NCBI GenBank assembly: GCA_001628485.1
Contig: LURR01000017.1
Location: 2,599-66,598, forward strand
Direction of reading: 5' to 3'
Length of the DNA: 64,000 bases
DNA from: Marine group II euryarchaeote REDSEA-S11_B3N4
GTDB taxonomy: Archaea > Thermoplasmatota > Poseidoniia > Poseidoniales > Thalassarchaeaceae
Positions 6,539 to 57,202 of the stretch are shown in pieces; position 1 is the stretch's first letter; each line of letters starts with the position of its first letter. The notes beneath the pieces were generated by a model. It was not told the origin of the DNA. It saw only the letters and a list, made by a program, of their open reading frames with translations, and did no database searches. The translations under genes and the position numbers were made by a program.

Positions 6539-7506
6539 TCTAACTTCTGAGACATCTCTATCCCCCTAACTAGCGCCATTAGTATCTCATTCCTAGGTGT
6601 TGGCACTCCAACCTCCTCTCCCTTAGAAATCACGGCACCACAAAGGACATCTATCTCGGTTTTTCTTCCAGCCATGAGGTCCTGAAGCATAGAAACTCTA
6701 TTCTCGGCAGTCGATTCGACCACCCTCCTTAGATAACTCTCAGAGTCGGAATCTCCTAGATCTATTCCCGATGCCTTGGCGACAGCCTCGGCCTCTCTCA
6801 TAGCCTCAATTGCCTGATGCCACAATTCTGGAACCTCTACCAAGGCCCCATTCCTTACACCTGCGATAGCACAGATTGGATTAATTGCTACATTTATCAT
6901 CAGCTTCCTCCAAATTTCTCCTTCGATATCTATTGACCAATTAGGTACCAGCCCCCCTTCATCTAGCAATGAAATGAATTCAGTAGCAATAGAATTCGGT
7001 TCAGAGGAATTAACTGAACCTAGAGAAATTGTCCCTCTCCCCGTCCAGTGGACAGCACCGTCTCCATCTCTCCAAGCGGAGTGAGTGGTAGTTCCCCCCA
7101 GCACTCGCTCCCAACCGACTCTGCTGGCAATGATTCCCGAATTTCCAAGTCCGTTCTGAATGCTGATTACTAATGCGTCTTGTTTAATCAGATCTTCAGC
7201 GATAGAAGCCAATTGGGGAGTTGAACCAGACTTGCCAGAGACAACTGCTACATCACAAGTTCCGCACACTTTCTCCTGTAGGGGGCCCTTCTCACTATCG
7301 ATAATCTCGAAACGCTCCCCTGGAATCATTTCCACAGATCCCTCGGGAGTGAATAGAGTCAGCCCCTCAAGTAAATCTCTAGCAGTCCTTCCTCTCGAAA
7401 CACAAACTAGTTCAGCATTGGTGTCAGATAGACATCCTGCGAGCACACCGCCAATCGCTCCAGTCCCAAGAATAGCAATTCTCACTCGCAACCCTCCGAT
7501 GGACAT
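6535..7506 (-). CDS. panE: 2-dehydropantoate 2-reductase (ketopantoate reductase, ApbA/PanE)
   Basis: Rossmann IAILGTGAIGG, QNGLG. C-terminal PanE signature SMLQDLMAGRKTEIDVLCGAVISKGEEVGVPTPRNE. ORF extends to 7554; the Met just before the Rossmann motif is used here. Confidence 0.8.
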   Translation of the reverse strand: MSIGGLRVRIAILGTGAIGGVLAGCLSDTNAELVCVSRGRTARDLLEGLTLFTPEGSVEMIPGERFEIIDSEKGPLQEKVCGTCDVAVVSGKSGSTPQLASIAEDLIKQDALVISIQNGLGNSGIIASRVGWERVLGGTTTHSAWRDGDGAVHWTGRGTISLGSVNSSEPNSIATEFISLLDEGGLVPNWSIDIEGEIWRKLMINVAINPICAIAGVRNGALVEVPELWHQAIEAMREAEAVAKASGIDLGDSDSESYLRRVVESTAENRVSMLQDLMAGRKTEIDVLCGAVISKGEEVGVPTPRNEILMALVRGIEMSQKLD

Positions 7507-9816
7507 CTTGCCGAAAGGTGTACAACGACTCCTGAATCGTCCGCAGTTACCCATAAGGCCCGTTCTAGAGTAGAACTACCATTCGCTACAGCTTCGACGA
7601 AATACGAATCTCCGGCGTCAATCCAGTCTCCGATGCTTACTTCCCAGATTCCAGACTGAGGGGAGTCTCCATGCCACTCCAAAGACAGTCCAATCCTCTC
7701 CGATCCTCTGTTGAAAATATAGAAAGTATCTGCCTCAATCCTCTGATTGAGGAGGATTGCAGAATGTCCTACACTAGAATCTTCTGTGGAGACGAATACA
7801 TCGGGTCCCGCGATTATCCTGAATGAGGCCAGCGAACCATCGGTACCACAAATCGCCAGCCATCCCTCTCCGCCGATACCTATCGAACCATTCCCGCTCA
7901 GATTCCCTTCAAGCCTGATCGGGGAGTAGTTGCTCATCTCTACTGACCAGTTCCCCCCAGTGTCCACTTGTGCCGCAATCTCGCTAGATGGGCAGAAAGG
8001 GGATCCTCTATCGGAGTGGGAGAGAATATCTCCGCTGGAAACGACTCCAGTAGGAATTTTCCATTGCCCATCCATGACCTGTATAGATGGCTCTGAGCCA
8101 TCAATTGAAATCAGCCATGGCCCCTCGGTCGAGTTCTCCCTCTCAAGGAAAACAATAGGGCCAAAGGATCTGCCCTGCGAATCAAAAATCTCCGAGCTCT
8201 GAATCGCGCCACTGTTTCCTCTAAGGCACAACTCCTGTATTCCCGAAGTTAGATTACTCTCGTTCATAGTCTCCCAGTAGGCTCCCTCGACGAATATATT
8301 CCCTCCATCTCCAGCATCAAAATTAGTACAAATTATCGGTTTGTCTAATCCTCCAGAAAGGCTCCAGAATGGGCCAATTAAACCCCTGCTAGAAAACTCA
8401 TGAAGCAAGATCTCATGCTCTACCTCGAAGCCTGAGACTTCGACTAGTACCTTTAGCAGATGATTCGAGAAATTCCCCTCTGGAGGGGTAATGGAGATAT
8501 CTAAGACGCTAGTCTCGGACTGCGCAACACCATCGAATCGACATGTCTCTGGAAGATCAGAACAATCGGTGCTGAGAACCCACTCCTGAGATCGAGACCC
8601 CTCAATCCTCATCTGAATCCATCCGGATACAGGCATCACCCCTTCTGGCTCCAAATTCAGCGAAATTACTTGCAACTCACCCCCGGAGAACCCTACCTCT
8701 TCTGGCCACTCTTCAGTAGAAATCCCCCCAATGTAGTCCTCCATTTCGTAGGAGGGAACAGATCCCGGCAGCCCTGCCAGGAGTACCACACTCGCTACAG
8801 CCACGAAGCGACTCTTGAACCTCTCATCTAACCCAGATTGTTCGTCAAGGACGATTGGCTGAGGGAGATTATCCGGATTGAAACGCTGCCATGCAGCTAC
8901 GAAGGCAAGGAAAACCCATGGGGTCCATTTGGCTGTTGCGAAAACCACTACCATCAGGAAGAGCACGATTAGGAACACTGATGTCTGGGTACTCCCACTC
9001 CTCATTTCCGCTGGACCAATAATTGCATGGAGTAGCCTATCCCCTGGTAGGCCTGGTATGGGGAGCATCATTATCCACCCGACTAAGGAGAGTCCTACTC
9101 CAGAAATACCAACGGGATGCAACCATTGGAGACGAATTTCCAGATGTTCCCCCAACAAAGAATCGGCTAGATAGCCAGAAATCAGACAATGGAACTGCCA
9201 ACTCGATAGATCCCAACGCCCTTCTGGATGGAATTGGAACCATATCGAGCTTCCTCTGCCCAATCGCCCCAACAATTCCGAATGGCCACCATGTAGGAAT
9301 TGGAAATACGATTGGGGCAATGTGCCCTATTTCTATCCCGAATCTCCTTGCGATAAGAACCCTGCAATAGCTTGCTATGGATAGGGTAACTAATATTGGT
9401 AGCGTGAAAAAAATCAGCGAATTCATAATTTCGCCATTTCCAGACGAATTACTATCATATCCGTATTCAGAAACCCAATGTGATCCAGCCATGGTTAGGA
9501 AAACTGACATGACTGCCCACATCAGCAAACTCTGGTAATTTCCCATCACATTGCTTCCTTGAGGAATCCTTGAGATGATCAGAACAGGGGGATTCGTCTC
9601 TTCTAGCGATCCAACCAATCCCATCGTGTCAAGGTGTGAATTGAGTTCCTCCAGCTGTTTACTAACATCCTTCCCGTCTAAACCTCTGACCTCCCATGAA
9701 TTGGGATAACTGCCCTCGTTACCTAGTTCGAAGAATCTAGAGGTTATTACCTCGAGAAGTTCTCTGGTGCCCCAGGTCTCAGTGTCAATCAAAATCTCCT
9801 CTGGCATGATGCTCAC
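7482..9816 (-). pseudogene. M50 (site-2-protease)-like polytopic membrane protein fused to a ~450-aa sequon-rich extracytoplasmic domain; split over two overlapping frames (frameshift), zinc motifs apparently degenerate
   Basis: Frame A (9816..9037) reads ...LSIASYCRVLIARRFGIEIG...; the post-HExxH 'ARRxG' region of S2P is present, but the HExxH position reads SIASY. Frame B (9320..7482) reads MLPIPGLPGDRLL (cf. NLLPIxPLDGG) then a TM helix, then a large domain with many NxS/T sequons. See findings. Confidence 0.4.
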
Positions 9817-28043: not shown

Positions 28044-31000
28044 ATGAGTCAGGCCCCAGAAAACACAGTTGTACGTCCAGAATACGATGCTTCGATGATG
28101 GGTCTGTACGCATCTCTGGTCGCTGGAGGACTTATGCTGGCCTATGCGATTTGGTACGTTACGGTGGTGAATGTAGACAACGACTACTCATTCCTTACCC
28201 TCGGTGTCATCACCGGAGCCACCGCAGTATCTGTGATAGGCTTACACGAGTGGATGAGGAGTCAGGCTGGCCCAGACAGGTCGGAGAACCCGATTGAGGA
28301 GTATGGAGGGGCGATAGCGGTTCTGATGGGCTCGCTATCTGTTGTTTGGCTCTCCCGGTTCGCAGTTTTCTATGCGGGCCAAGAGAATGACTGGATAGCA
28401 ATTCAAGATGGGGATGTTTGGATGCCAGTGTGGCTCGCGGCATTGCAGGCAGTGGGCATCCTTGTCGTGATGGAGATAAGCACTCGGAATATCCGGAGGC
28501 ACTCTCTCGGGACTCTACCGAGGACTGTTGTTGTCCTAGCACCTCTCGCGGTTCTGTTCAGTGGGGTGAAGATTTGGCTAGAATACTCTCGGGGGGAGGT
28601 TGAGACCTTCATCACCCTGTCAGTAATCCTCCTCTCAGGATCCGCCGTCCTCTACTCGCTCAGGCTAGACAGGGCCATCCTGTACCTAATGTCCTCAGGA
28701 GCCGCGGTAGGATTGCCCATATTCATCGCACTCAGCTCTTGGGGAGAGACTGAGCACGCCAGCCTGCTAGTCCCAGCAGTTGTGATTGTGGGGATAACCG
28801 CCACCGACAGAAGCCTATCCAAGAAAATGATCGAGAATGGGTCAGGGGCTGTGGTAGCCGCCATTCTGTTCTGCCAGATTCTGGCTGCGGACGAGACACA
28901 GTTCTCAATAGCCGGGCACACCATCTCCGAGCATCCGTTCGGCCTAACCTTCTGGCTCTGGGTCGCCCTCCTAGTCGGCTGGTTCGCACCAACGACGATG
29001 CAGAGAACCCCTGCTATGCCAGTGGGGTTGGCACTGGCACTGGCACTCCTCTCGGATGAGGCTGCCATGGTTGCCTGGGTGGTCGGAATCTGTGCATTCG
29101 TATACCTGGAGACCCGTCCACAGGCAAGAGACTGGGTCGTGAGAGCGACATACGTAGCCATGGTGGCCTCATGGACCGTGTCGTCGTTCATAGGTGCGGG
29201 AAGAGACGGAAACATACTCGAGTTCGAGTCTCTCAAACTCGGCATAGTAGACGGAATCTCCCTAGTGATATTCCCATCGTTGCTGGCCCTGGGAATATGG
29301 GCCCAGTGGAGAGGCAGGCTGAGGACCTATGAGGGCCCCTCAATCCTCTTGGTACTCGCATCATTAAATTACGAACTTCTAGAGGAGGCAGGCCCCCTCT
29401 TCCTGCTAATCATTTCAGCAGCATCACTATTCCAACTGAACTGGTTCTTGCGCTCGAGATTTGAAGATAGATACGAAAGAGAGTGGTTCTCGGACTTGGG
29501 ATATATAGTCCTCTTATCTTCCCCGTTGATCCTTTCCAGTATCCTAACAATCGGCGAGCAAGACCTGGAACCTATGATTCTGGCTTTGCCTCTGATACTG
29601 TTCTTCGGGGTGTTCGGGATCTGCCACAGGTGGAGAGTCGATGGCGAGAGCCTTGTTCTAAGGCCGGAGATGGCGACTATGCTCATACTGGTTCTAGTAT
29701 TCCTCATCAACAACGTCCGTCCTTGGGAGGAAGGGGACTTCTCAACAGAAACCATTTCCCTGACTCTGGCTTGCTCGGCTCTGCTTGCTGCCCTCCTAGC
29801 AGTAGAGGGAGGGGCTGCATTCAGGACAACTCCATTCGAGAGACTGGTGGGCATAACCTACCTCTTCTCCGTCTCAGTGGTCTCAGCGAATATCCTCTCT
29901 TGGGAGGGCGCAGAACTCTGGGCACGGGTAACTAGGGACTTGATCATCATCGCCGCTCCCGTAGTTGTAAACTTCCGCTTGAAGACTCTGCTAGACCTAT
30001 CGCAGGAGGCCAGAAACTTTGGCAGCATGACCCTTTTCGTACTTCTCTTAATCGGTATGACCGATTCCTCAGGGGGGTTGCTGGCACTGCCAGTTTTCGC
30101 CATCGCTGTGCAGAGGGCTGCGAAGCACGTATCCACTCCAGTCCTTGTGGCATTGCCCGTGGTTGCCGTAATCTATGCATCCTTCTTCGACTCTTTGCGG
30201 GACGAAAGCGACCTGATATGGGCACTACTCAATGGCATTCCATACCTAGGGGAAACGACGGATATTCTCCTATTTGACACTCCCAGATGGGTCTCTCTTC
30301 TACTGCTATCTATACCGGCCTCGGTTGCAATCCACCTCCCTTCGGAAAAGGAGCGTGAGGGCGGGTCAAGATACGGTCCAGAGCAACTCTTCGGACCCGC
30401 AGTCGCTACCCTCCTCTCCGTGGCTTTCCTCCTTCCGGATCCACAGACTGCGCCCATAGTCATCGTGACAGTCATTACTGCTGGAGCATGGAGACAGGGA
30501 GTAATCAATTGGTTTTGGATTTCTCCCATAGCATGGTTCTGGGCTTCTCTGGAGCTATTCCAGTATCTCGAAGTCGGACAGGGGTCGGACTATGCCCGTG
30601 TGATCGGGGGCTTGGCTGGATTCTCCCAGTACTTGCTTTTCCATAACGGATTGCTCCTGGCTAACTCGCCGTTCGAAGACCATGATGCGGGGAACGACGA
30701 ATTTCTGGGCTTGGCTTCCAGGGTGTACGGATACGTCTTCCTTCTAATTTCTGGAGGAGTAAGCGGAGCTCTCCCATTTGTCTCTGCCTTGGTGGCTGGC
30801 TGGGACGGCATCAGGACCGGCACTCCAATCGTACTGCACGGATCGGTTTTGGTCCAAACCCTGACTCTCGAGTCATGGTTGCGTCACGATTTTGGACTCC
30901 ATTCAGAAGATGCGCTGGTCTGGCCCATCGCTGTCGGCATTGTGATGGTCGGATTGTCATGGCGCAGGGCGAATCCCTACGGGCGGGAGGTCATGGTTCA

Positions 31001-31715
31001 GGCTGTCGGAACATCTGAGTCAGAGCCCTTCGACACGGAGAGGGACTTCGGGATGTTCGGCTCCGCATTCTTCCTGATTGCCATGTTCCCATACTCTGAG
31101 TTCATAGAAGTGGATTTCGCGTTCGGGGCATCGATAGTGCTTCTATCATTGCACCATGTCATCGTCGGTTTCGGCAGGGATCACGGATGGAGGAGGCTTA
31201 TCAGCCTGATCGGAATGCCTTCAGGCCTCATAGTCACAGGCGTTGCTTATGAGGGTCTGATAATGGTGCTGATGCTTTTCCTAGCATCTTTGACGCTCAT
31301 TGGTCAGGCTGTCCTATACGCCTCAAGAGGGGGTTTGGAGATTGGCAGCACAATCGAGGGTGCAGCCCCAATCGTTTCAGATGTGGGAGTCTCTGAGCCT
31401 TCTCCCGAGCCTAGTAAAACCAAAGAAGAGCCAACTGAGGTCAGTGAGGAAGCAGAACCAGAAGATGACGTGCCCTCGGAAGAGGTGGACGAGGAGGAAA
31501 GTGTCGAACCGGAACCAGTGAAACCACAATCTCCCTTATTCGAATCAGAAGACGCCCTCTTCGGAATTAGGTTGGAGCCGAACATGATGTACAACCTCAG
31601 AGAGATGATATCGACAAACAGGACCGTAGACTTCAGCAAGTGGTCTCCGGTACTGGCGATTAGCTCCAACGGATCAATAGTCCTGAACTGGGAGAAATCC
31701 TCAGAGGAGGAGTGA
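28044..31715 (+). CDS. Giant (1223 aa) polytopic membrane protein, ~30+ predicted TM helices, acidic Pro/Glu-rich C-terminal tail; no recognisable family
   Basis: Uninterrupted 3.67-kb ORF. Almost entirely hydrophobic helices with short loops. C-terminal ~150 aa EPSPEPSKTKEEPTEVSEEAEPEDD... Confidence 0.6.
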   Translation: MSQAPENTVVRPEYDASMMGLYASLVAGGLMLAYAIWYVTVVNVDNDYSFLTLGVITGATAVSVIGLHEWMRSQAGPDRSENPIEEYGGAIAVLMGSLSVVWLSRFAVFYAGQENDWIAIQDGDVWMPVWLAALQAVGILVVMEISTRNIRRHSLGTLPRTVVVLAPLAVLFSGVKIWLEYSRGEVETFITLSVILLSGSAVLYSLRLDRAILYLMSSGAAVGLPIFIALSSWGETEHASLLVPAVVIVGITATDRSLSKKMIENGSGAVVAAILFCQILAADETQFSIAGHTISEHPFGLTFWLWVALLVGWFAPTTMQRTPAMPVGLALALALLSDEAAMVAWVVGICAFVYLETRPQARDWVVRATYVAMVASWTVSSFIGAGRDGNILEFESLKLGIVDGISLVIFPSLLALGIWAQWRGRLRTYEGPSILLVLASLNYELLEEAGPLFLLIISAASLFQLNWFLRSRFEDRYEREWFSDLGYIVLLSSPLILSSILTIGEQDLEPMILALPLILFFGVFGICHRWRVDGESLVLRPEMATMLILVLVFLINNVRPWEEGDFSTETISLTLACSALLAALLAVEGGAAFRTTPFERLVGITYLFSVSVVSANILSWEGAELWARVTRDLIIIAAPVVVNFRLKTLLDLSQEARNFGSMTLFVLLLIGMTDSSGGLLALPVFAIAVQRAAKHVSTPVLVALPVVAVIYASFFDSLRDESDLIWALLNGIPYLGETTDILLFDTPRWVSLLLLSIPASVAIHLPSEKEREGGSRYGPEQLFGPAVATLLSVAFLLPDPQTAPIVIVTVITAGAWRQGVINWFWISPIAWFWASLELFQYLEVGQGSDYARVIGGLAGFSQYLLFHNGLLLANSPFEDHDAGNDEFLGLASRVYGYVFLLISGGVSGALPFVSALVAGWDGIRTGTPIVLHGSVLVQTLTLESWLRHDFGLHSEDALVWPIAVGIVMVGLSWRRANPYGREVMVQAVGTSESEPFDTERDFGMFGSAFFLIAMFPYSEFIEVDFAFGASIVLLSLHHVIVGFGRDHGWRRLISLIGMPSGLIVTGVAYEGLIMVLMLFLASLTLIGQAVLYASRGGLEIGSTIEGAAPIVSDVGVSEPSPEPSKTKEEPTEVSEEAEPEDDVPSEEVDEEESVEPEPVKPQSPLFESEDALFGIRLEPNMMYNLREMISTNRTVDFSKWSPVLAISSNGSIVLNWEKSSEEE

Positions 31716-38960: not shown

Positions 38961-39926
38961 GTGTCGCCTTCCCTCGCCATAATCATAATGGTCGATGTCG
39001 ATACAGCCCTAAGGGCCAGCGCCTATTCAGGCAAGAAGGGCACTGGGGGCAAAGGAGGAGGCAAGAAGTCTTCTGCCCTTGAGCCATTCGACCCCTCCTC
39101 GCATGCAGAGAAGGAGAAGGCAGATGCGGTCTCCATGTGGATAGTGATTTTCTTCGGACTCTCGGTTGCATTGTTGATGAGATTCTACATGATGCCTGGA
39201 ATGAATGGGACGAAACAGATACTCTGGCTTCTCCCCTTGCTGATGATCTCTCTAATTCGGCCTATCCACCAGGCTTTCGTCCCGCTAAGATTCTTTGAAC
39301 TATACACAACTGGGAATTGGGTTAGGTCTTCGTTTCTGTATATTTTCACATGGCTCGCCCTGTCATTCGCACTGGTCAACCCTCCTCTGGCGGATATCGC
39401 TGCACCCCATCTTGCTGGAGCAATAGACATTGCAACTACAGAGGGAATATCAGACTCGGACTTGGATGGCTCTGTCTACGAGATCAGAATCTCCCAGGAT
39501 TCTATCCCGGTGTTGCTTGGTCTAGCAGTCAGGGATAACGTTGACGCCGAGAACTCAACCATGAATCTTACAATCCAGAAGGTAGGTCAAATGGAGCCGA
39601 TCGTCAACGTCTCCGGTTTAGTATCAGAGATAGCCTCAGATGGATCTAACGGACTTTCTCCCTCTGATACTTTCGAATCTGTAGATGATGAAGAATGGGT
39701 GAGGGGGCTTCGGAAGAACTCACTTACAGGGGGTTTCTTGGGGCCAAAGGTGGCCCCACACTCGCAGGATATCTCCATGGCGTGGGATCTTTGCCCCAGT
39801 GGGTGTGGCCCCGGGGACTATCTGATTCAAATCTCACTGACTGAGATTAATGATATGGTTCCTTGGCAAGACGGAGAGAACACTTGGCAGAGGGAGTACA
39901 CACTCAGAATTTTGCAGTCATCCTAA
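38961..39926 (+). CDS. Hypothetical membrane protein (Lys/Gly-rich N-terminus, 3-4 TM helices, acidic C-terminal domain)
   Basis: GKKGTGGKGGGKKSS then hydrophobic helices. No family recognised. Confidence 0.4.
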   Translation: MSPSLAIIIMVDVDTALRASAYSGKKGTGGKGGGKKSSALEPFDPSSHAEKEKADAVSMWIVIFFGLSVALLMRFYMMPGMNGTKQILWLLPLLMISLIRPIHQAFVPLRFFELYTTGNWVRSSFLYIFTWLALSFALVNPPLADIAAPHLAGAIDIATTEGISDSDLDGSVYEIRISQDSIPVLLGLAVRDNVDAENSTMNLTIQKVGQMEPIVNVSGLVSEIASDGSNGLSPSDTFESVDDEEWVRGLRKNSLTGGFLGPKVAPHSQDISMAWDLCPSGCGPGDYLIQISLTEINDMVPWQDGENTWQREYTLRILQSS

Positions 39927-41809: not shown

Positions 41810-43540
41810 TCAACCCTCTGGCTCTATCTCACGAGCAACATCAAGAAACTCCTCGATACTAATCAGTCCGTCTTTGTCAGTGTCTCCTTTGCCGAAAACA
41901 TCCCCGATCAACTGGTCTCCTCGGCGATTTCTGGTTTTCGAGAGAACTATGGCATCGTCGGGAATGTTTGGCCCCCCTCCTTCGATGTATCCTAGAGCCT
42001 TGAAAGCGCTGACGAATTGGTCTAGATCCAACTGCCCATCTCCCTCTGCATCGGCATCGTAGAATGCAGCGAACAATCTTCTCCTCTCAGCTTCGTTTGA
42101 ATTAGTAAGCATCAGCCTCACAGTTTCCCAGGGAGTAATCTGTGCATCCACCCTACTTCTGCCATAGCCGTTGTAGATGATCAATCCCAGAACTATCGCC
42201 GCCGAGGCTCCAACCAGGGACTTCGAACCCATCAAATAAAGCAAGGCCCCCCCTCCGAAGATACCAAACAACTGTACCGCGGGATATAGGGGCCAAGGTG
42301 TCTTCCACTGTGGATCGTACCATGTGTGCGAATCCGATGAGGTCCTAAGCACTATCACACATCCATTTATGAGCATGAATATCATTATCTTGAATCCAGA
42401 TGCGAGTTCAGCGACATCATGAACAGGAAGGAATGTTATCGCCAGACCCATAGCCACTCCCGTCCCAATTATTGCCCAATGAGGAGTCCCAAATCTCTGA
42501 TGGACACTCTCAAGAAAAGGAGGAAGTAGATTATCTCTGGACATCGCAAATGGGAATCTCGATGAAGCAAGAATACCCGCTAAAGCCATTGAAGTCATGG
42601 TCACGACAGCGAGAATTGCAGCGATCTTTCCAACGGTCTCTCCTCCTACTGCCTCAGCGAAGATGTATATTGGATCCTCGCTAGCGCCGTGTTCGCCATG
42701 CATGTATTCAGAGGGGGAAACTGCAGCCGCCATTACCATAGTGACCAAAACGTACAGCAGACAGCTGAATAGTAGCGAAAGAAGAATCCCATACGGAAGG
42801 TTCCTCTCGGGGTTCTTGACCTCTCCGCCCACTGCAGCGATTTTGGTCACACCAGCGTAGGAGACAAACACAAATGCCGATGTAGCGGCAACATCCTCCC
42901 AACTCCCAAAAGAATCCTTGGAAGAAACAGCACTCCAATCCAGATCATGGTATGCAATCGCATAAACGCACAGAGCGAATAGGTAAGCTGCGGAAAATAT
43001 CACGATTGGAATCTGTACCTTCTTGATCTTCTTCACACCAAGGATGTTTATTCCGACGATGATCGCTAGGAGTAGGATTGCAGCCGCCTCTATATCGATA
43101 TCCATCCCCAGCAAATCCTCTATTACCCAGAGATAGGCTTTGAAGCCAATTAATGCGAATGCAGACTTTAGCATGAAATTGGCCCACAAACCCAGACCTG
43201 CTACAGTTCCTATGAGGGGGCCGAAGGTCTTCTGCACGTACACGTAAGAGCCACCCGATGTGGGCATAGCTGTTGACAGCTCTGACTTTGAGACGGCACC
43301 AGGAATTACGAGAACTGCAGCAACTAGGTAAGCCAGCCAGACGCCCCCTAGTGGGATATCTCCGCCTCCAAGTTCTAGCATGGCGAGAGCAGGAAGCACG
43401 AAAAGTCCAGATCCTATCATTGCGGACAAAGAGATAATTATCACCGAAAATAGCCCTATCTTCCTTTCCAGTCCGTCAGACTCCGTATCCTTGGGAGTCA
43501 ACACTATTCCTACTAGGTCCTCTGGACCGTAGTGACGCAT
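41810..43540 (-). CDS. APC-superfamily amino-acid permease fused to a C-terminal EF-hand pair
   Basis: 12 TM helices with GSGLFVLPA motif. C-terminal loops [12 protein letters not shown] and a canonical [15 protein letters not shown] nominally extends to 43651. Confidence 0.8.
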
Positions 43541-43617
43541 GATTTGACGGCCCCACACACCCCAGTTGAAGGTTCTGCATACCCAATGGTTAGATACTCT
43601 TTCCAAACCGAGCAGAC

Positions 43618-44106
43618 ATGGTTGACACAATTGAACATGGAACAATTGCATCAGTGCATTACACTGGAACTTTCGCAGAGGGGGGAGAGTTCGATAGCAG
43701 CAGAGGAAAGGATCCCTTGGTTTTCATAGTTGGCTACGGGCAGATGATTACTGGATTCGAGAGAGAGATGCTAGGGGCTAAGGTGGGCGAGAAGAGGGAG
43801 TTCACTTTGTCGCCTGAAGATGCTTACGGGGAGAGAATAGAGGATGCTATTCAGAAGGTTGAGAGGGAAAACTTTCCTGAGAATATGGAGCTTGAAGTCG
43901 GAATGGTCGTTGGTGCCCATAGTGATCAGGGCCCGATTCAATTCACTATTGTCGAGATAGATGAAGAAGTGGTCACTGCTGACTTCAATCACCAGATGGC
44001 CGGTAGAACCCTAAGATTCGAAGTAGAAGTCGTTGACATTCGGGCGGCTTCCGAAGAAGAACTGGCTCATGGGCATGTCCATGGACCCGGTGGCGTAGAT
44101 CACTGA
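43618..44106 (+). CDS. slyD: FKBP-type peptidyl-prolyl isomerase with IF (chaperone) insert, SlyD-like, His-rich C-terminus
   Basis: VHYTGTFAEGGEFDSS...LVFIVGYGQMITGFE, insert domain, C-terminal HGHVHGPGG. Confidence 0.85.
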   Translation: MVDTIEHGTIASVHYTGTFAEGGEFDSSRGKDPLVFIVGYGQMITGFEREMLGAKVGEKREFTLSPEDAYGERIEDAIQKVERENFPENMELEVGMVVGAHSDQGPIQFTIVEIDEEVVTADFNHQMAGRTLRFEVEVVDIRAASEEELAHGHVHGPGGVDH

Positions 44107-44149: not shown

Positions 44150-45178
44150 ATGAGGAGGCAAGCAGCGCTCGCGGTTACTCTTCTTTTTGTCTCCTCCTTC
44201 ACCGGGTGCTTCGGGGTAGAATCAAACGGCAATCTCTTCAACGAAGACGACGAAAAAGAGCCACTTCGCATTAATCACATACAGATGAAGGGAACTCATA
44301 ACTCGTACCACGTTGAACCTCTGTTCTCCCCAACCAGGGAATACATGTATACTCACCAAACTCTTGACTTGCAGGCCTCCCAACAAGGGGTAAGGCAGTT
44401 CGAATTAGATGTGTGGTGGGACGTAAGAGGTAGCCTCAGAGTCTACCACAACCAGTACGACTCCGGAACAACATGCCCGACATTCGAGGATTGCCTAGGT
44501 ACGTTGCTCGAATGGTCGAACGCGAATCCTATGCATCACCCCTTGTTCATCTGGGTTGAGCCCAAGGATTGGCCTGAGCAGGCTGCCGATGTGACAACCA
44601 CTCTGGAAATTTCCGGGCTCCTGGGAGACATTGAGCAGGAAATATCGAATTTCTGGCCCCTGAACAAGACAATCACGCCCGACGATGTTAGGGGGGACGG
44701 TGACAACCTCCGTGATGCGATCGGGGAAAATGGCTGGCCCCTGCTAGAGCAGAGTAGGGGCAAGGCCATCTTCGTTTTGTTAGCGAGGGGGCAGACTAGG
44801 GATTTGTACATCCAAGACTACCCGGGATTAATCGGAGCTAGGATGTTCACTCTCTCAGAAGAAGGTAGCGAAGAGGCTGCAATATTCTCAATTACCGACC
44901 CCGTAGGCAATGGTGAGGATATTACCAGATTGGTTTCCGAGGGATACATAGTTCGAAGTAGGGCGGACAGCGGGGGTGAGGAGGCCGATAACAACGACAC
45001 TTCCAGGAGAGACGCAGCAATTGCAGTCGGTGCTCACAGCATTTCCACGGACTATCCAGCCAAGGTGGATGGGCTCGAGTACTGGGTCTCAATTCCAGAT
45101 GGGAACCCAAGTAGATGCAACCCCATATCCTCGCCTGCTTGGTGCACTTCTGACAGCATCGAGGACATATCTCAATGA
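44150..45178 (+). CDS. Secreted/lipoprotein PLC-like phosphodiesterase (PI-PLC X-domain-like TIM barrel)
   Basis: Signal peptide with lipobox-like FTGC, catalytic-His motif QMKGTHNSYH, (beta/alpha) barrel pattern. Confidence 0.5.
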   Translation: MRRQAALAVTLLFVSSFTGCFGVESNGNLFNEDDEKEPLRINHIQMKGTHNSYHVEPLFSPTREYMYTHQTLDLQASQQGVRQFELDVWWDVRGSLRVYHNQYDSGTTCPTFEDCLGTLLEWSNANPMHHPLFIWVEPKDWPEQAADVTTTLEISGLLGDIEQEISNFWPLNKTITPDDVRGDGDNLRDAIGENGWPLLEQSRGKAIFVLLARGQTRDLYIQDYPGLIGARMFTLSEEGSEEAAIFSITDPVGNGEDITRLVSEGYIVRSRADSGGEEADNNDTSRRDAAIAVGAHSISTDYPAKVDGLEYWVSIPDGNPSRCNPISSPAWCTSDSIEDISQ

Positions 45179-45829
45179 TCATGCCCTTGCAATGACCTTC
45201 AACTCGATGGCAATTGAAGTTGGCAGAGCTTCGACTGAAACGGTGGTCCTTGCTGGAAGAATCTCAGAGAAGTACTCCGCGTAAACCTCGTTGTACTCCT
45301 GGAAATCTCTTTCCATGTCCGTCAGGAAGACTAGGACATCAACGATATCTTCCAGACCGAGCCCATATTCTTCGAGAATCGCCCTGATGTTACCAATTAC
45401 TGCGTGTGTCTGCGCTCTAATGTCATACTCCAGAGGATTTCCAGCCTCATCCTTTATTGGTCCTCCGGGTATTTCATTTGTCCCAGGCTGCCGGGGACCC
45501 ATACCGCTAACGAAGACTAGGTCCCCTACTCTGCGTAAATGAGGATAAGCTCCAACTGCCGCGGGGCCTCCCTCTGCGATGAAGGCTCCATCCTCACTGG
45601 TAAGCTTCCCAGCCGCCTTCCGTCCAACTACCGCTCCCAACACGCCTCCTACGGGACCACCAACCGCCACGCCAGCAGCTGCTCCCAGAGCACCTCCAGC
45701 AGATCTCGCAAGAGACTGCCCAACCTCGTCGTAAACCTTCTCGACCGCGTCAGCAGGAGCAGAGACAATCCCTTCAACCATCTTCTTCCTTTTTTCCTCA
45801 GTCGTCATTTGCTCCTCATCTTCCATCAC
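45179..45829 (-). CDS. RidA/YjgF-family (enamine/imine deaminase-like) protein with Gly/Ala-rich N-terminal extension
   Basis: C-terminal ~130 aa VGDLVFVSGMGPR...RTTVSVEALPTSIAIELKVIA is the chorismate-mutase-like RidA fold. N-terminal GAAAGVAVGGPVGGVLGAVVG glycine-zipper-like segment. Confidence 0.7.
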   Translation of the reverse strand: MMEDEEQMTTEEKRKKMVEGIVSAPADAVEKVYDEVGQSLARSAGGALGAAAGVAVGGPVGGVLGAVVGRKAAGKLTSEDGAFIAEGGPAAVGAYPHLRRVGDLVFVSGMGPRQPGTNEIPGGPIKDEAGNPLEYDIRAQTHAVIGNIRAILEEYGLGLEDIVDVLVFLTDMERDFQEYNEVYAEYFSEILPARTTVSVEALPTSIAIELKVIARA

Positions 45830-46749
45830 AAGGCCCCCGTATTCAATACTCCTCGATCACCATGGTAATGTTCCACATCGTCCTCGTCAAACTCCTTGTC
45901 TCCTACAGAGCCTTTCGATGGAGTCAGAACGACAACCGCACCTCCCGAGCCATGAAGTGCCTCATAGGCCAAAACCTCGCCTCTGTAGTTGTTGTTTTGG
46001 CCCATTGTAGCGGACATCCACCAAGCTGGCTTGTAAGCCACGACCTTTTGCACTCTAATCTGCCCATGGATCTCTCTCGAAAGCTGACTTAGGTCCTCCA
46101 GCCTGCCGTCTCCGAAGAACTCCAGGATTTTCTTGTTCCACTCGTCATCCTTAGCAGAGTGTATCCGGTCCTCTGCAGGGTCGATGTGCTCCGTGAACAT
46201 CCTGTTTGAAAGGCTGGAAACTACCACTACAACTGCCTTCTTGCCCTGAGCGGCAATCGCATCACGCGCAGACTTGCCCAGAACAATCGTTTCAGCCCTA
46301 TTTGCATACATGTTACTGGATACGATACATGCAGGAATCCTGTTATCTGGGTTTAGAAGCTTGAGCGCAACAATCGAGCCTGTGTCTATCGGGAAACCAT
46401 CGTAAGCCACCGTTCTAGATTGTAGCCCTCTCGATTCTGCAGACTCTCTGAATTTCTCGGCAAACTCTGTGTCCATCTTGAACTTGTATGGCATGCTACC
46501 CAGGTAGTGGAAGTCATCGTCCACATGCACCCATTCCGGCTCGGGATGTCCCTGTATCTGGTGGCCAATGATGCTAGGCCATGTCGTCGAGTAAACCAGT
46601 ATCAGGTCTGCCTCGCTTTCCTCGATCCTTTTCCTGCATGTCTCGAATGCATCCCTTAGTTTCCCATATCCCTCACTTGCTTCTGGTGATAGAAGTGGTT
46701 GTGGGTGGGGCGGACAGTAAATCCCGAAAAGAATCTCTGGATCTGACAT
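45826..46749 (-). CDS. LigB-family (class III extradiol dioxygenase) homologue lacking catalytic His residues; alpha-like, probably non-catalytic subunit
   Basis: LigB-fold N-terminus GIYCPPHPQPL. Positions equivalent to LigB His61 and His195 read T and N (STTWPSIIG; SSLSNRM). Confidence 0.55.
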   Translation of the reverse strand: MSDPEILFGIYCPPHPQPLLSPEASEGYGKLRDAFETCRKRIEESEADLILVYSTTWPSIIGHQIQGHPEPEWVHVDDDFHYLGSMPYKFKMDTEFAEKFRESAESRGLQSRTVAYDGFPIDTGSIVALKLLNPDNRIPACIVSSNMYANRAETIVLGKSARDAIAAQGKKAVVVVVSSLSNRMFTEHIDPAEDRIHSAKDDEWNKKILEFFGDGRLEDLSQLSREIHGQIRVQKVVAYKPAWWMSATMGQNNNYRGEVLAYEALHGSGGAVVVLTPSKGSVGDKEFDEDDVEHYHGDRGVLNTGAL

Positions 46750-46758
46750 TTAATCACC

Positions 46759-47664
46759 TCAGAGCACAATCTCTCTGGTTGCCTCTATTGGATCCCACGC
46801 GGCAATCAGGTTGCCCGTGCCTATCACCGATTGATAACCGTAAATTTCGGCAGGGTACTCAGGATAGCCCATGGCTGCCATCATCCAAGTGAGCCCTCCG
46901 GCTTCAGTCTCTGCGATCGTCTGCTCCGTGAATTCGGGCATAATGTCGATCACTTCTTTCATCTTCCCACCTCTCATCAGGTCTACCAGCTTCATATCCC
47001 AGACGTATTGGCTGTGATTGTATATGTGCTCCCTGCTCATATCCTCGGGGAGGGGGGACTCAGTCACGAAGTGCCTGTGGGATAGGCTATGGCTACTGAT
47101 CAGTACAACTTTCTTCCCACTCTCTTCTATTGCCTTTGCACAGGCAATCCCAAGGGCACTGGCCTGCTCATTCATCACTTCTGGCGAGTAGTAGTGCGCG
47201 TTTCGGTTACTACTTATCGTAACCAGTGGCTTGTCCCACTCAGGATTAAGCATGTGGCATGACGTGATTGTCCCATAGTCGATTCTGAAGTCAGGATTCC
47301 GCATCATCTTAGTCACTATCCCGGATTCCCCAGCAACCTCACACATCTTCTCTGCCAACTCTACATCTACTGAGATGTCGTAGTTGAACCGGAAGAGATT
47401 AGGAAAAACAGGGTCAACCGACTTTGACTTGAATTTAGGCAGCCCGAGGAAATGAGTTCCGATGTAAGTCTGCCAGTGAGGGGTGAAGATGACCATTGCA
47501 TCGTAGTCAATCGATTTCAGTTTCCTTGCGAGTCTGTTGTAACCCCATCTGAGTGTCTCCCATCCTCCTTCTGCGAAAGCCTCGTTCTGTTCCGGATTCT
47601 CCGCATAAACTACATGCGGGGGGTGTGGAGCGAGGCATCCTAGTACTATCTCTCCCTTCGCCAT
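46759..47664 (-). CDS. LigB-family class III extradiol ring-cleavage dioxygenase, catalytic (beta-like) subunit
   Basis: Fe ligands and base conserved: LAPHPPH (His12 equivalent), FTPHWQ (His61), SSHSLSH (His195), ETEAGG (Glu242). Confidence 0.65.
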   Translation of the reverse strand: MAKGEIVLGCLAPHPPHVVYAENPEQNEAFAEGGWETLRWGYNRLARKLKSIDYDAMVIFTPHWQTYIGTHFLGLPKFKSKSVDPVFPNLFRFNYDISVDVELAEKMCEVAGESGIVTKMMRNPDFRIDYGTITSCHMLNPEWDKPLVTISSNRNAHYYSPEVMNEQASALGIACAKAIEESGKKVVLISSHSLSHRHFVTESPLPEDMSREHIYNHSQYVWDMKLVDLMRGGKMKEVIDIMPEFTEQTIAETEAGGLTWMMAAMGYPEYPAEIYGYQSVIGTGNLIAAWDPIEATREIVL

Positions 47665-53800: not shown

Positions 53801-53965
53801 TTACCTGCGTACTCTACTTCCGTCTTGAACAATGTCCCGGAATTACTAGTTCCATGTTTTTCTGACAGTCAACGCATTCTTGTGGAATCGTGTTTTCGGG
53901 GTAGTATGGCAAGTAGAGCGGATAGCGGGGAGCCCGACTCTATAATTCGGGCTCCAGGGGGAAAA

Positions 53966-56900
53966 ATGCCCATCCGAGTAATTACCGCGGCAGCCATCTT
54001 CGATGGGCACGATGCAGCCATCGGAATATTCCGCAGGATTCTACAGAGCCAAGGTTGTGAGGTTATCCACCTAGGGCACGATAGAGGTGCAGATGAGGTA
54101 GCACGTGCCGCCATACAGGAGGATGCCCATGCTGTAGCTATCACATCCTACCAGGGAGGGGCCGTCGAGATGTTCACACACACTAAAGACATCTTGCAGA
54201 AAAACGGTTTCGAGCACGTTTTCCTCTTTGGAGGAGGCGGCGGAACCATCCTGCCAAAAGAGATCGATCACCTCAAGGAACAGGGGATTTCTAAGATTTA
54301 TTCCCCGGACGATGGCAGGGACCTTGGCCTAGTTGGGATGGTCAGGGACGCAATGACCAGCGCATCCGCCACAGACCTACTTGCTGAATCCAGATTCGAC
54401 CAGATAACGGGCCAGGTAGATGCAGACAATCATGCTGCAGTATCTCTCCTACTGACCATGGCAGAAAACTCGCCCCCTGATCAATTCTCAGACAAATTAT
54501 CCCAAGCACGCTCCAGGGAAGTCGAAGCAGAGTGCCCCGTAGTGGGGATAACCGGAACAGGTGGGGCTGGGAAGTCGAGCCTGATGGACGAGGTCATGCT
54601 TAGGATCAGGCGAGACAATCCCGATGCCAGGGTCGCACTGCTAGCAACCGATCCCACGAGGAAGAAGACTGGAGGCGCGCTACTTGGGGACAGAATCAGG
54701 ATGAACTCCCTCTCGGACTCAAAGTTGTTCATGCGCTCCTTCGCGAGCCGGGAAAGTGGGCGAGAGATAGCTGAGTGCATAGATCGCGCCGTCGAGGTCT
54801 GTAAGGCAGTGGGTTTCGACTTGGTTTTGGTCGAGACCAGCGGGATAGGACAAGGTAACGACGCAATAACCGAGGTCGCTGATACCTCGATATACGTAAC
54901 AACAAGGGAGTACGGTGCACCCAGCCAGTTGGAGAAGTTAGCCGCCCTAGATTTCGCTGACATTGTGGTTCTGAACAAGTTCGATAGGCCCGGGGCCGAG
55001 GATGCACTAACGGAGATTCGCAAGCAATTCCAGAGGAACAGAGAGGCATTCGGAGAAAGCCCGGAGTCAATGCCGGTGGTTCCCACGATTGCTAGCCAGT
55101 TCGCAGACGCGGGAGTGGATCGACTTTGGGAGATGATGTCCTCACTCCTGAACGACAGATTCGATACAGACTTCGCAGCAAGTGAGGCTAGACTGGGCCC
55201 AGACGGACTTCCCAGCCGCGATGCCCCGATTCCTCCCGAGCGCCAGGGATATCTGGCAGAAGTAGCTTCTACGGTGAGAGGTTATCACAAGAGGTCTGAG
55301 GACTTGGCCAAGGCGGTCAGACAAGTCCAGCAGTTAGAATCTGTGGCCAAATTCCTCGACTCCTCGAAAAAGGAGGGGAATCACATTGACTTGCTGGAAG
55401 AGGCGATGGAAATACGCGAATCTCTGCCCGAATCTGCATGGGGGGCTCTGGAGGATTTCGAATCAATAGTAGACTCCTATAGATCCGGACAGGCGAGTTA
55501 CACTGTTCGAGGAAAGGAAATCCCGGTAAAGACGACGCATGAGACCATTTCGGGGACTAGGGTGCCTAGGGTGGCACTCCCTACAACGGAGGACTGGGGC
55601 GAGAAACTTCTGTGGATAAGCAAGGAGAACGTTCCAGGCTCCTTTCCTTTCACCGGAGGGGTCTTCCCGTTCAGAAGGGAGGATGAACTTCCGGTCAGAA
55701 TGTTTGCCGGGGAAGGCAGCGCGGAGAGGACCAACAAGCGATACCACTTCCTATCCAAGGATCAGCCATTCAACCGCCTATCGGTAGCATTCGACTCACC
55801 AAGCCTGTACGGTAACGACCCCCAGGAGAGGTTGGATATTTTCGGGAAGGTCTGTGAGTCTGGCGTAAGCATCAGCACCGTAGACGAGATGGAGATGCTC
55901 TTCGACGGCTTCGACCTGTGCGCACCCGACACGTCTGTCAGCATGACAATCAATGGGAACTACTGGTGGCACCTAGCAGCGTTCTTCAGAGTTGCAATCA
56001 GGCAGCAGACTAGGAAGTTCATCGACGAGAACGGAAGAGAACCGAACGAGAAAGAAGCCTCGGAGATTAAGGCATACTCCCTATCAACCGTAAGGGGGAC
56101 CGTACAAGCCGACCAGTTGAAGGAAGCCATGGGCCAGAACACATTAGTCTTCAATCTGGATACCGCACTGAGGATGATGGGGGACGTCGCGGAGTTCTAC
56201 GTGGACAATGAAGTCCGAAACCACTACTTCGTCAGCATCAGCGGATACCACATTGATGAGGCAGGTGCCAATCCGATCACCCAAGCAGCGCTGACCCTGT
56301 CAAATGGCCTAACCTACGTCGAGCTATTCAAGGCCAGGGGACTCGATCCGGACAAGTTCCTGAGGAACTTCTCATGGTTCTTCTCCAATGGAATGGATCC
56401 GGAGTACGCGGTAATTGGCAGGGTCTCAAGGAGGATATGGGCCATAGCCATGCGAGACCTATATGGGGTCGGGGAGAGGGGACAGAAGCTGAAGTACCAC
56501 ATACAGAGCAGTGGTAGATCCCTGCATTCTCAGGAGTTCACATGGAATGATTACCGAACCACCCTACAGGCCCTGTATGCCCTCGCAGACAACGCGAACA
56601 GCCTCCACACCAACAGCAGGGACGAGGCCTTCGGGACCCCTACAGAAGACACAGTCAGGGATGCGGTGGCAATCCAACTAATTCTTGCTAAGGAGTATGG
56701 CTGGCTCAGGAACGAGAACCCACTCCAAGGCTCATTCGTAGCCGACTACCTGACCGATGAGGTCGAGGAGAAGGTACTCAGGATTTTCGAGGAGATGCAC
56801 AGCAGGGGAGGGGTTTTGGGAGCCCTGGAAGTCAACTACCAGAGAAATAGGATCCAGGACGAGGGGATGCTCTACGAGCACAGAAAGCACACTGGAGAAA

Positions 56901-57202
56901 CTCCGATAGTCGGAGTTAACACCTTCACTGACGAGGACTCAGCCACTCCATCGGCCGATGATTTCGACTTGGACGTCACAAGATCTGACGAGGAGGAGAA
57001 AATGAAGGTCATCGCAAGGAACGCAGAATTCAGAGAGGCCCACTCTAAAGAGGCTGCGGAGGGACTTTCCAAGCTGAAGAATACGGCGCGCGAGGGAGGC
57101 AACCTGTTCGAGGTAATGATGGAAATCGTAGAACACTGCTCAGTGGGCCAGGTCACCCAGGCCCTTTTCGAGAGCGGGGGGAAGTTCAGAAGGAACATGT
57201 GA
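53966..57202 (+). CDS. icmF: Fused isobutyryl-CoA mutase IcmF-type protein (B12-binding domain + MeaB-like G3E GTPase + acyl-CoA mutase TIM-barrel)
   Basis: B12 domain [25 protein letters not shown] (DxHxxG). MeaB P-loop [13 protein letters not shown] and LATDPTR. About 600-aa mutase substrate domain. ORF opens at 53825; the Met at 53966 has an upstream AGGGGG. Confidence 0.85.
   Translation: [1078 protein letters not shown]

Follow-up and report, generated by a model that had tools for sequence, protein, structure and literature searches.

Does a marine archaeon couple the activity of a nutrient transporter to calcium within a single polypeptide? The question arises from a 64,000-nucleotide stretch of contig LURR01000017.1 (referred to here as the window), from the Marine Group II (MGII) euryarchaeote REDSEA-S11_B3N4, in which the gene for an APC-family permease continues beyond the last transmembrane (TM) segment into two EF-hand-like loops. 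An earlier interpretation made without database searches, hereafter the sequence-only reading, had noticed this arrangement, called it unusual in archaea and proposed Ca2+-gated uptake or efflux of amino acids. Our analysis indicates that the fusion is conserved across the order Poseidoniales and that its tail is expected to hold one canonical Ca2+ site. The further proposal, that this tail confers Ca2+-dependent autoregulation on the transport of an amino acid or related amine, appears to us about evenly poised between right and wrong.

The C-terminal tail and its predicted calcium site

The gene lies on the minus strand, where the maximal open reading frame (ORF) spans 41810-43651 and would encode 613 amino acids. 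The sequence-only reading had taken this whole span as the gene; the ORF is indeed uninterrupted, but its start had to be revised. Gene calls for almost every full-length homologue give 576 amino acids with the N terminus MRHYGP.../MxxYGP..., and the 37 additional upstream codons, which almost all homologues lack as called, overlap a divergently transcribed FKBP gene that starts at 43618. Because of these homologue calls and this overlap, the start at 43651 was rejected as almost certainly wrong in favour of the internal ATG at 43540, from which the permease begins with MRHYGPEDL, an N terminus conserved between species. Residue numbers below refer to the 576-residue protein unless the 613-residue ORF is stated. 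The gene and the parts of its tail are as follows.

41810-43540, minus strand: most likely coding sequence (576 amino acids plus stop codon) of an APC-family permease with a C-terminal EF-hand pair
43541-43651, minus strand: 37-codon in-frame upstream extension of the maximal ORF, probably untranslated
42101-42136, minus strand: juxtamembrane linker helix, residues 469-480, with the motif T-P-[FW]-x-T-[FV]-[RK]-x-x-[FLM]-x-N; helix 470-479 in the structural model
41993-42100, minus strand: EF-hand 1 (EF1), residues 481-516; EF-hand_6 match at 526-554 of the 613-residue ORF; loop at 42017-42052
41909-41992, minus strand: inter-EF insert, residues 517-544, about 20-28 residues, clade-specific; predicted local distance difference test (pLDDT) about 56
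41825-41908, minus strand: EF-hand 2 (EF2), residues 545-572; EF-hand_1 match; canonical loop at 41849-41884; pLDDT 92-94

The transport core ends near residue 463, leaving a tail of 113 amino acids, close to the 110 or so estimated beforehand. In a Pfam scan, three EF-hand families exceeded their gathering scores in the C-terminal ~85 residues: EF-hand_7 (PF13499; 36.3 bits against a cut-off of 30, and 42.0 bits with the tail alone), EF-hand_1 (PF00036; 37.3 against 25.4) and EF-hand_6 (30.6 against 25). The scan bears out the EF-hand pair proposed in the sequence-only reading, and the two loops quoted there, one textbook and the other a degenerate partner, are both present, at 41849-41884 and 42017-42052, respectively, on the minus strand.

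Structure prediction gave the same picture. A full-length AlphaFold2 model, based on an alignment of 130 sequences (overall pLDDT 89.4; predicted template modelling score (pTM) 0.88), places helices in the tail at residues 470-479, 481-496, 506-516, 545-552 and 562-572 and leaves 517-544 poorly ordered. Its helix-loop-helix units have pLDDT values of 87-94, and both EF loops take part in an inter-loop beta bridge (E503-504 and E560-561, assigned by DSSP). A model of the tail alone was of moderate confidence (pLDDT 68) and had the same secondary structure; its top-50 Foldseek matches in the PDB were all EF-hand proteins, though with weak E-values (at least 1.7e-3). These structural neighbours include the calmodulin-like domains of CDPKs, centrins, KChIP, GCAP, troponin C and the regulatory domain of SCaMC, which also appeared in a sequence search of the PDB with the tail that returned EF-hand proteins only. 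As modelled, the tail is a classical EF-hand pair with an insertion.

The two hands differ in their predicted capacity to bind calcium. We defined the strict canonical EF loop as D-x-[DNS]-x-[DNS]-G-x-[ILV]-x-x-x-E, a pattern that occurs once in the six-frame translation of the window, at EF2, against 0.04 expected per shuffled window. The EF2 loop is canonical by this definition in 71 of 79 and 96 of 116 orthologues. Position by position, the 80 MGIIb species loci described below keep D1 (80/80), D/N3 (78/80), D/N5 (80/80), G6 (80/80), I/L/V8 (80/80) and E12 (73/80), and 116 MGIIa-like proteins keep D1, G6 and D/E9 without exception (116/116 each) and E/D12 in 112/116. Glutamate at position 12 of an EF loop is the Ca2+-selective bidentate ligand. 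The EF1 loop of the window's clade is non-canonical: position 3 is a Glu and the bidentate position 12 a Gln, and E12Q substitutions strongly weaken Ca2+ binding by EF-hands. The MGIIa consensus for EF1, D-x-G-G-K-N/G-H-L-T-L-x-E, offers no ligands at positions 3 and 5, and the strict pattern was found in 0 of 79 and 0 of 116 orthologues. Judged by these residues, EF1 is a pseudo-EF-hand partner. Since no orthologue examined has a canonical EF1 loop, EF2 is expected to be the sole canonical Ca2+ site, with one Ca2+ per tail.

Conservation of the fusion and origin of the tail

A tblastn scan with the permease, using one genome per GTDB species, yielded 80 distinct loci, with matches that run from the N terminus to residue ~566-576 at 50-98% identity. 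By their titles, all are of Poseidoniales type except one contig binned as 'Alphaproteobacteria', and homologues with 95-99% identity are named Candidatus Thalassarchaeum, Thalassarchaeaceae or Thermoplasmatota (Marine Group IIb). The gene order in these loci is LigB-LigB-RidA-(PI-PLC-C1)-(FKBP)-permease-panB-RFC, with panB detected at 71 loci, RidA at 67, LigB at 67 and RFC at 50. Because this neighbourhood is fixed, the permeases are orthologues and not scattered paralogues.

A homologue search seeded with the divergent representative P0122 added about 120 further clusters of proteins of 535-573 amino acids, nearly all with precomputed EF-hand Pfam hits and several named Candidatus Poseidoniaceae. 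The survey of related archaea that had been suggested along with the sequence-only reading therefore found permease and EF-hands together in 80 MGIIb loci and in MGIIa-like clusters. On this comparative evidence, the fusion is order-wide in Poseidoniales, a conserved syntenic core gene of both MGIIa and MGIIb. Since it is present in both families (Thalassarchaeaceae/MGIIb and Poseidoniaceae/MGIIa), its distribution points to an origin ancestral to the order.

Three assemblies deserve separate mention. The contig from the 'uncultured Alphaproteobacteria' bin (L053; CAYMQD010000208.1) encodes a typical Poseidoniales permease-EF-hand orthologue and is probably misbinned. The metagenome-assembled genome UBA462 contains two orthologues, L003 and L017, at 93% and 66% identity, the contig of one measuring 2.7 kb, and the bin thus seems to draw on a mixed population. 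In P0107, from a 1.1-Mb ENA contig, an internal segment of ~35 amino acids is identical to an alternative-frame ORF of the window (compare 42708-42938, minus strand), which indicates a double frameshift introduced by assembly error and not a real variant.

Could the tail itself be such an artefact, a small EF-hand gene of its own that misassembly or a frameshift error fused to the permease? P0107 illustrates that errors of this kind occur in some assemblies; nothing else speaks for this origin. The same continuous frame is found in 80 independent species-level genomes and hundreds of metagenomic clusters from different projects, there is neither a stop nor a start codon context between core and tail, and the linker is conserved. 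With the fusion in one frame in 80 species, we rejected a mis-joined ORF, the chance of which we consider negligible. The sequence-only reading was right to treat the tail as part of the permease, the two being in frame in at least 80 species.

Both parts of the protein appear to be maintained by selection. At the codon level, the ratio of nonsynonymous to synonymous substitution rates (dN/dS) against close orthologues came to 0.09-0.16 in the tail and 0.03-0.055 in the core, so both are under purifying selection, that on the tail being somewhat more relaxed. Purifying selection also acts at the ligand positions of EF2. The strong purifying selection on the core is consistent with an active transporter.

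The nearest relatives outside the order carry other domains in place of the EF-hands. We searched 1.84 billion representatives of clusters at 50% identity without filters and considered the best 150 matches. Among the matches listed, four were EF-hand-tailed full-length representatives (P0121-P0124; 47-61% identity); three of these clusters hold members named Poseidoniales, Thalassarchaeaceae or Thermoplasmatota, and P0121 is unnamed. The next ~145 best matches share 32-50% identity in the core, are mostly 700-950 amino acids long and have the permease at the N terminus. When the top 60 representatives were searched with Pfam, PTS_EIIA_2 followed the core in 29 and Usp in 18, and no EF-hands were detected outside Poseidoniales members. 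Usp was commoner at weaker thresholds, and the tails of some relatives also match the C-terminal domain of prokaryotic cation-chloride cotransporters (CCC). Named relatives from outside Poseidoniales are few and all bacterial (Lewinellaceae, Saprospiraceae, Chitinophagales and Salisaeta longa). The fusion is not a rarity of one genome, given its order-wide occurrence.

By domain content, TM12 is characteristically followed in this APC subfamily by a cytoplasmic module for sensing or regulation, and in Poseidoniales the EF-hand pair sits in that slot. Because this C-terminal slot is occupied by Usp and/or PTS-EIIA-2 domains in the nearest relatives (40-50% identity), the EF-hand pair looks like a lineage-specific replacement of a Usp/EIIA-type regulatory module. 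Like the Poseidoniales permease, the Usp/EIIA-2-tailed permeases consist of a transport core followed by a C-terminal cytoplasmic module; their tails, however, measure 250-500 amino acids and hold one or two Usp domains with or without EIIA-2, compared with an EF-hand pair of 90-113 amino acids. Such an exchange implies a different input signal, putatively Ca2+ instead of nucleotide or phosphorylation status. The relatives' tails provide the strongest argument, albeit an indirect one, that the tail is regulatory, and a modular slot that holds Usp, EIIA or EF-hands would be useful for understanding how transporters gain new inputs.

The transport core and a possible calcium switch

Ahead of the tail, the permease comprises two parts.

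43454-43540, minus strand: N-terminal cytoplasmic segment, residues 1-29, predicted to be disordered and lying ahead of TM1 in the hydropathy profile
42152-43453, minus strand: 12-TM transport core of the APC/LeuT fold, residues 30-463, delimited by Pfam, hydropathy, alignment with GkApcT and AlphaFold2/Foldseek

After a short N terminus (pLDDT below 50 for residues 1-22 in the AlphaFold2 model), ~430 residues match AA_permease_2 (PF13520; 150.4 bits against a cut-off of 27) and AA_permease (PF00324; 110.7 against 24.6), and the hydropathy profile contains 12 TM segments. The closest solved structure is GkApcT, a CAT/SLC7 homologue from Geobacillus kaustophilus (PDB 5OQT and 6F34; phmmer E-value 2.4e-30, Foldseek E-value 4.5e-20), to which the core aligns end to end (residues 19-463 to 18-457 of the 6F34/5OQT chain) at 24% identity; the GkApcT chain stops directly behind TM12 and is tailless. 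Foldseek ranked GkApcT (6f34_A, template modelling score 0.84), BasC, AdiC, LAT1 and ApcT as the top matches of the full-length model, with target-normalised scores of 0.77-0.84. Family scores, hydropathy and fold all agree with the 12-TM APC-type core of the sequence-only reading.

In GkApcT, Glu115 in TM3 is the proton site and Lys191 in TM5 a surrogate for the Na2 site (PMC5803215). The alignment pairs E115 with N121 of the permease, K191 with S183, D237 with T232 and M321 with G322, and GkApcT-type proton-coupling residues (Glu115 and Lys191) are not kept in it. T232 is followed by an invariant Lys233; N121, S183, T232-K233 and G322 are conserved within the APC subfamily, with K233 and G322 nearly invariant among 130 relatives. 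These replacements hint at a mechanism of coupling or selectivity distinct from that of the characterised CAT/ApcT homologues. No equivalog-level NCBIfam assignment was obtained for the core: the best matches over its whole length, the TIGR00909 (2A0306) subfamily (203.2 bits against 556.8) and BcaP (NF053761; 174.2 against 690), fall far below their cut-offs, and neither model has an EF-hand tail. Because the proton-handling and selectivity residues are replaced, substrate and coupling are not transferable from GkApcT, and we rejected carrying over either from GkApcT or, given the NCBIfam scores, from BcaP. 'Amino-acid transporter' is here a family-level label, with an amino acid as the presumed substrate.

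The N and C termini of solved APC-fold transporters are cytoplasmic. For this reason, and from the positive-inside pattern of the permease, with a lysine-rich TM4-TM5 loop (VKKIKKVQ) and an arginine-rich stretch directly after TM12, the tail is predicted to be cytoplasmic, in agreement with the sequence-only reading. The converse, an extracellular tail that binds seawater Ca2+ (about 10 mM) for stability, would suit a marine organism, and the topology here is a prediction. It is nonetheless very improbable: an even number of TM segments (12) aligns end to end with APC transporters whose termini are cytoplasmic, both basic stretches obey the positive-inside rule, and the Usp and EIIA modules found at the same position in relatives are cytoplasmic domains.

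With the tail in the cytoplasm, Ca2+-dependent autoregulation could work as follows. TM12 would run into the cytoplasm, followed by the TP[WF] linker helix and the EF-hand pair with its one functional site. When cytosolic Ca2+ rises above its resting level, EF2 would be filled and the pair would open; the opened pair would bind or release a target elsewhere in the same chain, the most plausible candidates being the TP[WF] helix, which is conserved and amphipathic, and one of the core's cytoplasmic loops. Engagement or release of this target would alter the dynamics of the inward gate and change the rate at which an amino acid or related amine is transported, and the regulation could be either activation or inhibition. 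The linker helix has hydrophobic residues at i, i+3 and i+7, and its motif keeps the proline in 190/190 orthologues and opens with T in 186 of them and with S in 4. In its most specific form, in which Poseidoniales gate a core nutrient transporter directly by cytosolic Ca2+ through a built-in one-site EF-hand switch, the EF-hand pair having taken the place of a Usp/EIIA-type tail, we hold the proposal only tentatively.

Several points weigh against autoregulation. Ca2+ binding and its effect on transport are both predicted, a single canonical site may entail low cooperativity and affinity, and cytosolic Ca2+ signalling in these uncultured archaea is presumed. The mean hydrophobic moment of the linker, 0.45 compared with 0.31 +/- 0.16 in shuffles, is only a modest excess. 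In P0122, EF2 reads DLNQIGYIEIDD, so that its ligands are lost while the tail is retained, and the same is seen in its relatives P0300-P0302, P0332, P0357 and P0365, a small Poseidoniales sub-lineage (for example, DIDKTGHIEFDE). Ca2+ binding is therefore not universally retained, and the protein can apparently function without the EF2 site.

The loss of EF2 ligands in some lineages would also be in keeping with a structural or oligomerisation module, which would bind a divalent cation constitutively or not at all and would dimerise or stabilise the cytoplasmic face, much as the Usp-like C-terminal domains of cation-chloride cotransporters or the dimerising EF-hand domain of the aspartate/glutamate carrier (AGC) do. 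The Usp-type tails of the relatives, with their weak matches to the prokaryotic CCC C-terminal domain family, and the conserved, ligand-free pseudo-hand EF1 of MGIIa favour such a role as well. However, EF2 positions 1, 3, 5 and 12 and Gly6 are conserved far beyond the needs of a scaffold, D1 and G6 are invariant in 196 orthologues, and the glutamate at position 12 is selective for Ca2+, and we consider a purely structural tail rather unlikely. Were it correct, the result would be an annotation refinement, from 'amino acid permease' to 'APC permease with a C-terminal EF-hand pair'.

The inter-EF insert bears on a further alternative. It is confined to the window's sub-clade, and orthologues further removed in MGIIb and in MGIIa lack it; though predicted to be disordered, it is almost invariant within this sub-clade. 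Compared with its four nearest orthologues (L018, L001, L002 and L004), the insert has a dN/dS of 0-0.07, and compared with more remote members of the clade, where the ratio could be calculated, one of 0.12-0.17. By these features the insert may be a linear interaction motif. A clade-specific, tightly conserved element with low predicted order would suit a tail that acts as a signalling output or adaptor, either in a transceptor or through Ca2+-dependent recruitment of a soluble partner, with transport itself ungated. EF-hand pairs that have bound Ca2+ usually present a hydrophobic cleft to target helices (PMC6283063), and Poseidoniales-specific families with Ca2+-binding domains have been mentioned in passing, without detail (PMC9258230). 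Against this stands a neighbourhood of housekeeping genes (panB, RFC, FKBP, RidA and LigB), none of which hints at a partner, and the dN/dS of the core (0.03-0.055) fits an active transporter. We regard an adaptor function as improbable.

Autoregulation by a built-in tail, the proposal that we favour, has counterparts in mitochondria. SCaMC (the ATP-Mg/Pi carrier, SLC25A23-25), aralar and citrin likewise combine a solute transporter and EF-hands in one polypeptide, and SCaMC has a self-sequestered locking pin, formed by an amphipathic helix situated between its EF-hands and its carrier domain (PMC6283063). By contrast with the Poseidoniales permease, with its 12-TM APC fold, single C-terminal EF-hand pair, one functional site and archaeal host, SCaMC and AGC are eukaryotic 6-TM SLC25 carriers with an N-terminal regulatory domain of 4-8 EF-hands that faces the intermembrane space. 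The SCaMC hallmarks of an SLC25 domain and at least four EF-hands are absent from the permease, and the resemblance would be an analogy, convergent at most. A survey of prokaryotic calmodulin-like fusions describes proteins in which, as here, an EF-hand dyad of the bacterial, calmodulin-like type is joined to another functional domain; the part of that survey consulted mentions neither permeases nor archaeal hosts (PMC7016017).

In public databases, these proteins are labelled 'amino acid permease' or 'APA family antiporter' and carry automatic EF-hand hits. A full-text literature search, the coverage of which left out subscription journals, found no paper describing the fusion of an APC permease with EF-hands. 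With known precedents both for transporters with a swappable cytoplasmic regulatory tail and for EF-hand-regulated carriers in mitochondria, the architecture is conceptually unsurprising. If Ca2+ does gate transport, no secondary transporter regulated by Ca2+ would have been described before this permease, either in Archaea or among the APC transporters of prokaryotes. Poseidoniales, which rank among the most abundant planktonic archaea, would then have converged with mitochondria on the arrangement of SCaMC and AGC, and genuine Ca2+ signalling would be implied for these uncultured organisms. Archaeal Ca2+ signalling is almost unexplored, and here a conserved single-polypeptide module would have a transport output that is measurable in liposomes, with no need for culturing. 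MGII are uncultured, globally abundant degraders of proteins and peptides, and control of their amino acid transport bears on ocean carbon and nitrogen turnover.

Neighbouring genes and other features of the window

The window is a piece of ordinary chromosome, with genes for A-type ATP synthase subunits, SMC, an IcmF-like fused mutase, RFC and panB. Two genes from the permease and on the opposite strand, with the FKBP gene between them, 44150-45178 (plus strand) encodes a 342-residue protein with a lipoprotein-like N terminus, MRRQAALAVTLLFVSSFTGC, and a 240-bit Pfam match to PI-PLC-C1 ('phosphoinositide phospholipase C, Ca2+-dependent'). This gene is present in 42/80 orthologous loci. Given its strand, the intervening FKBP gene and its occurrence in only 42 loci, we set aside a functional link with the permease, and the presence of a second Ca2+-linked protein at the locus may be a coincidence.

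Further along, 45179-45829 (minus strand) encodes a RidA/L-PSP protein with a Gly/Ala-rich N-terminal extension of ~85 amino acids, and 45826-47664 (minus strand) holds two tandem genes of the LigB family (extradiol dioxygenase-like). In 67/80 loci, this RidA and LigB trio accompanies the permease in conserved synteny. At 53825-57202 (plus strand), a 1125-residue protein joins a B12-binding domain, a MeaB GTPase and a methylmalonyl-CoA mutase in an IcmF-like fusion.

Three ORFs gave no Pfam match at the thresholds applied: 28044-31715 (plus strand, 1223 amino acids) and 7482-9320 (minus strand, 612 amino acids) at E <= 1e-5, and 38961-39926 (plus strand, 321 amino acids) at E <= 1e-4. The last of these is conserved beside RFC in 47/80 related loci.

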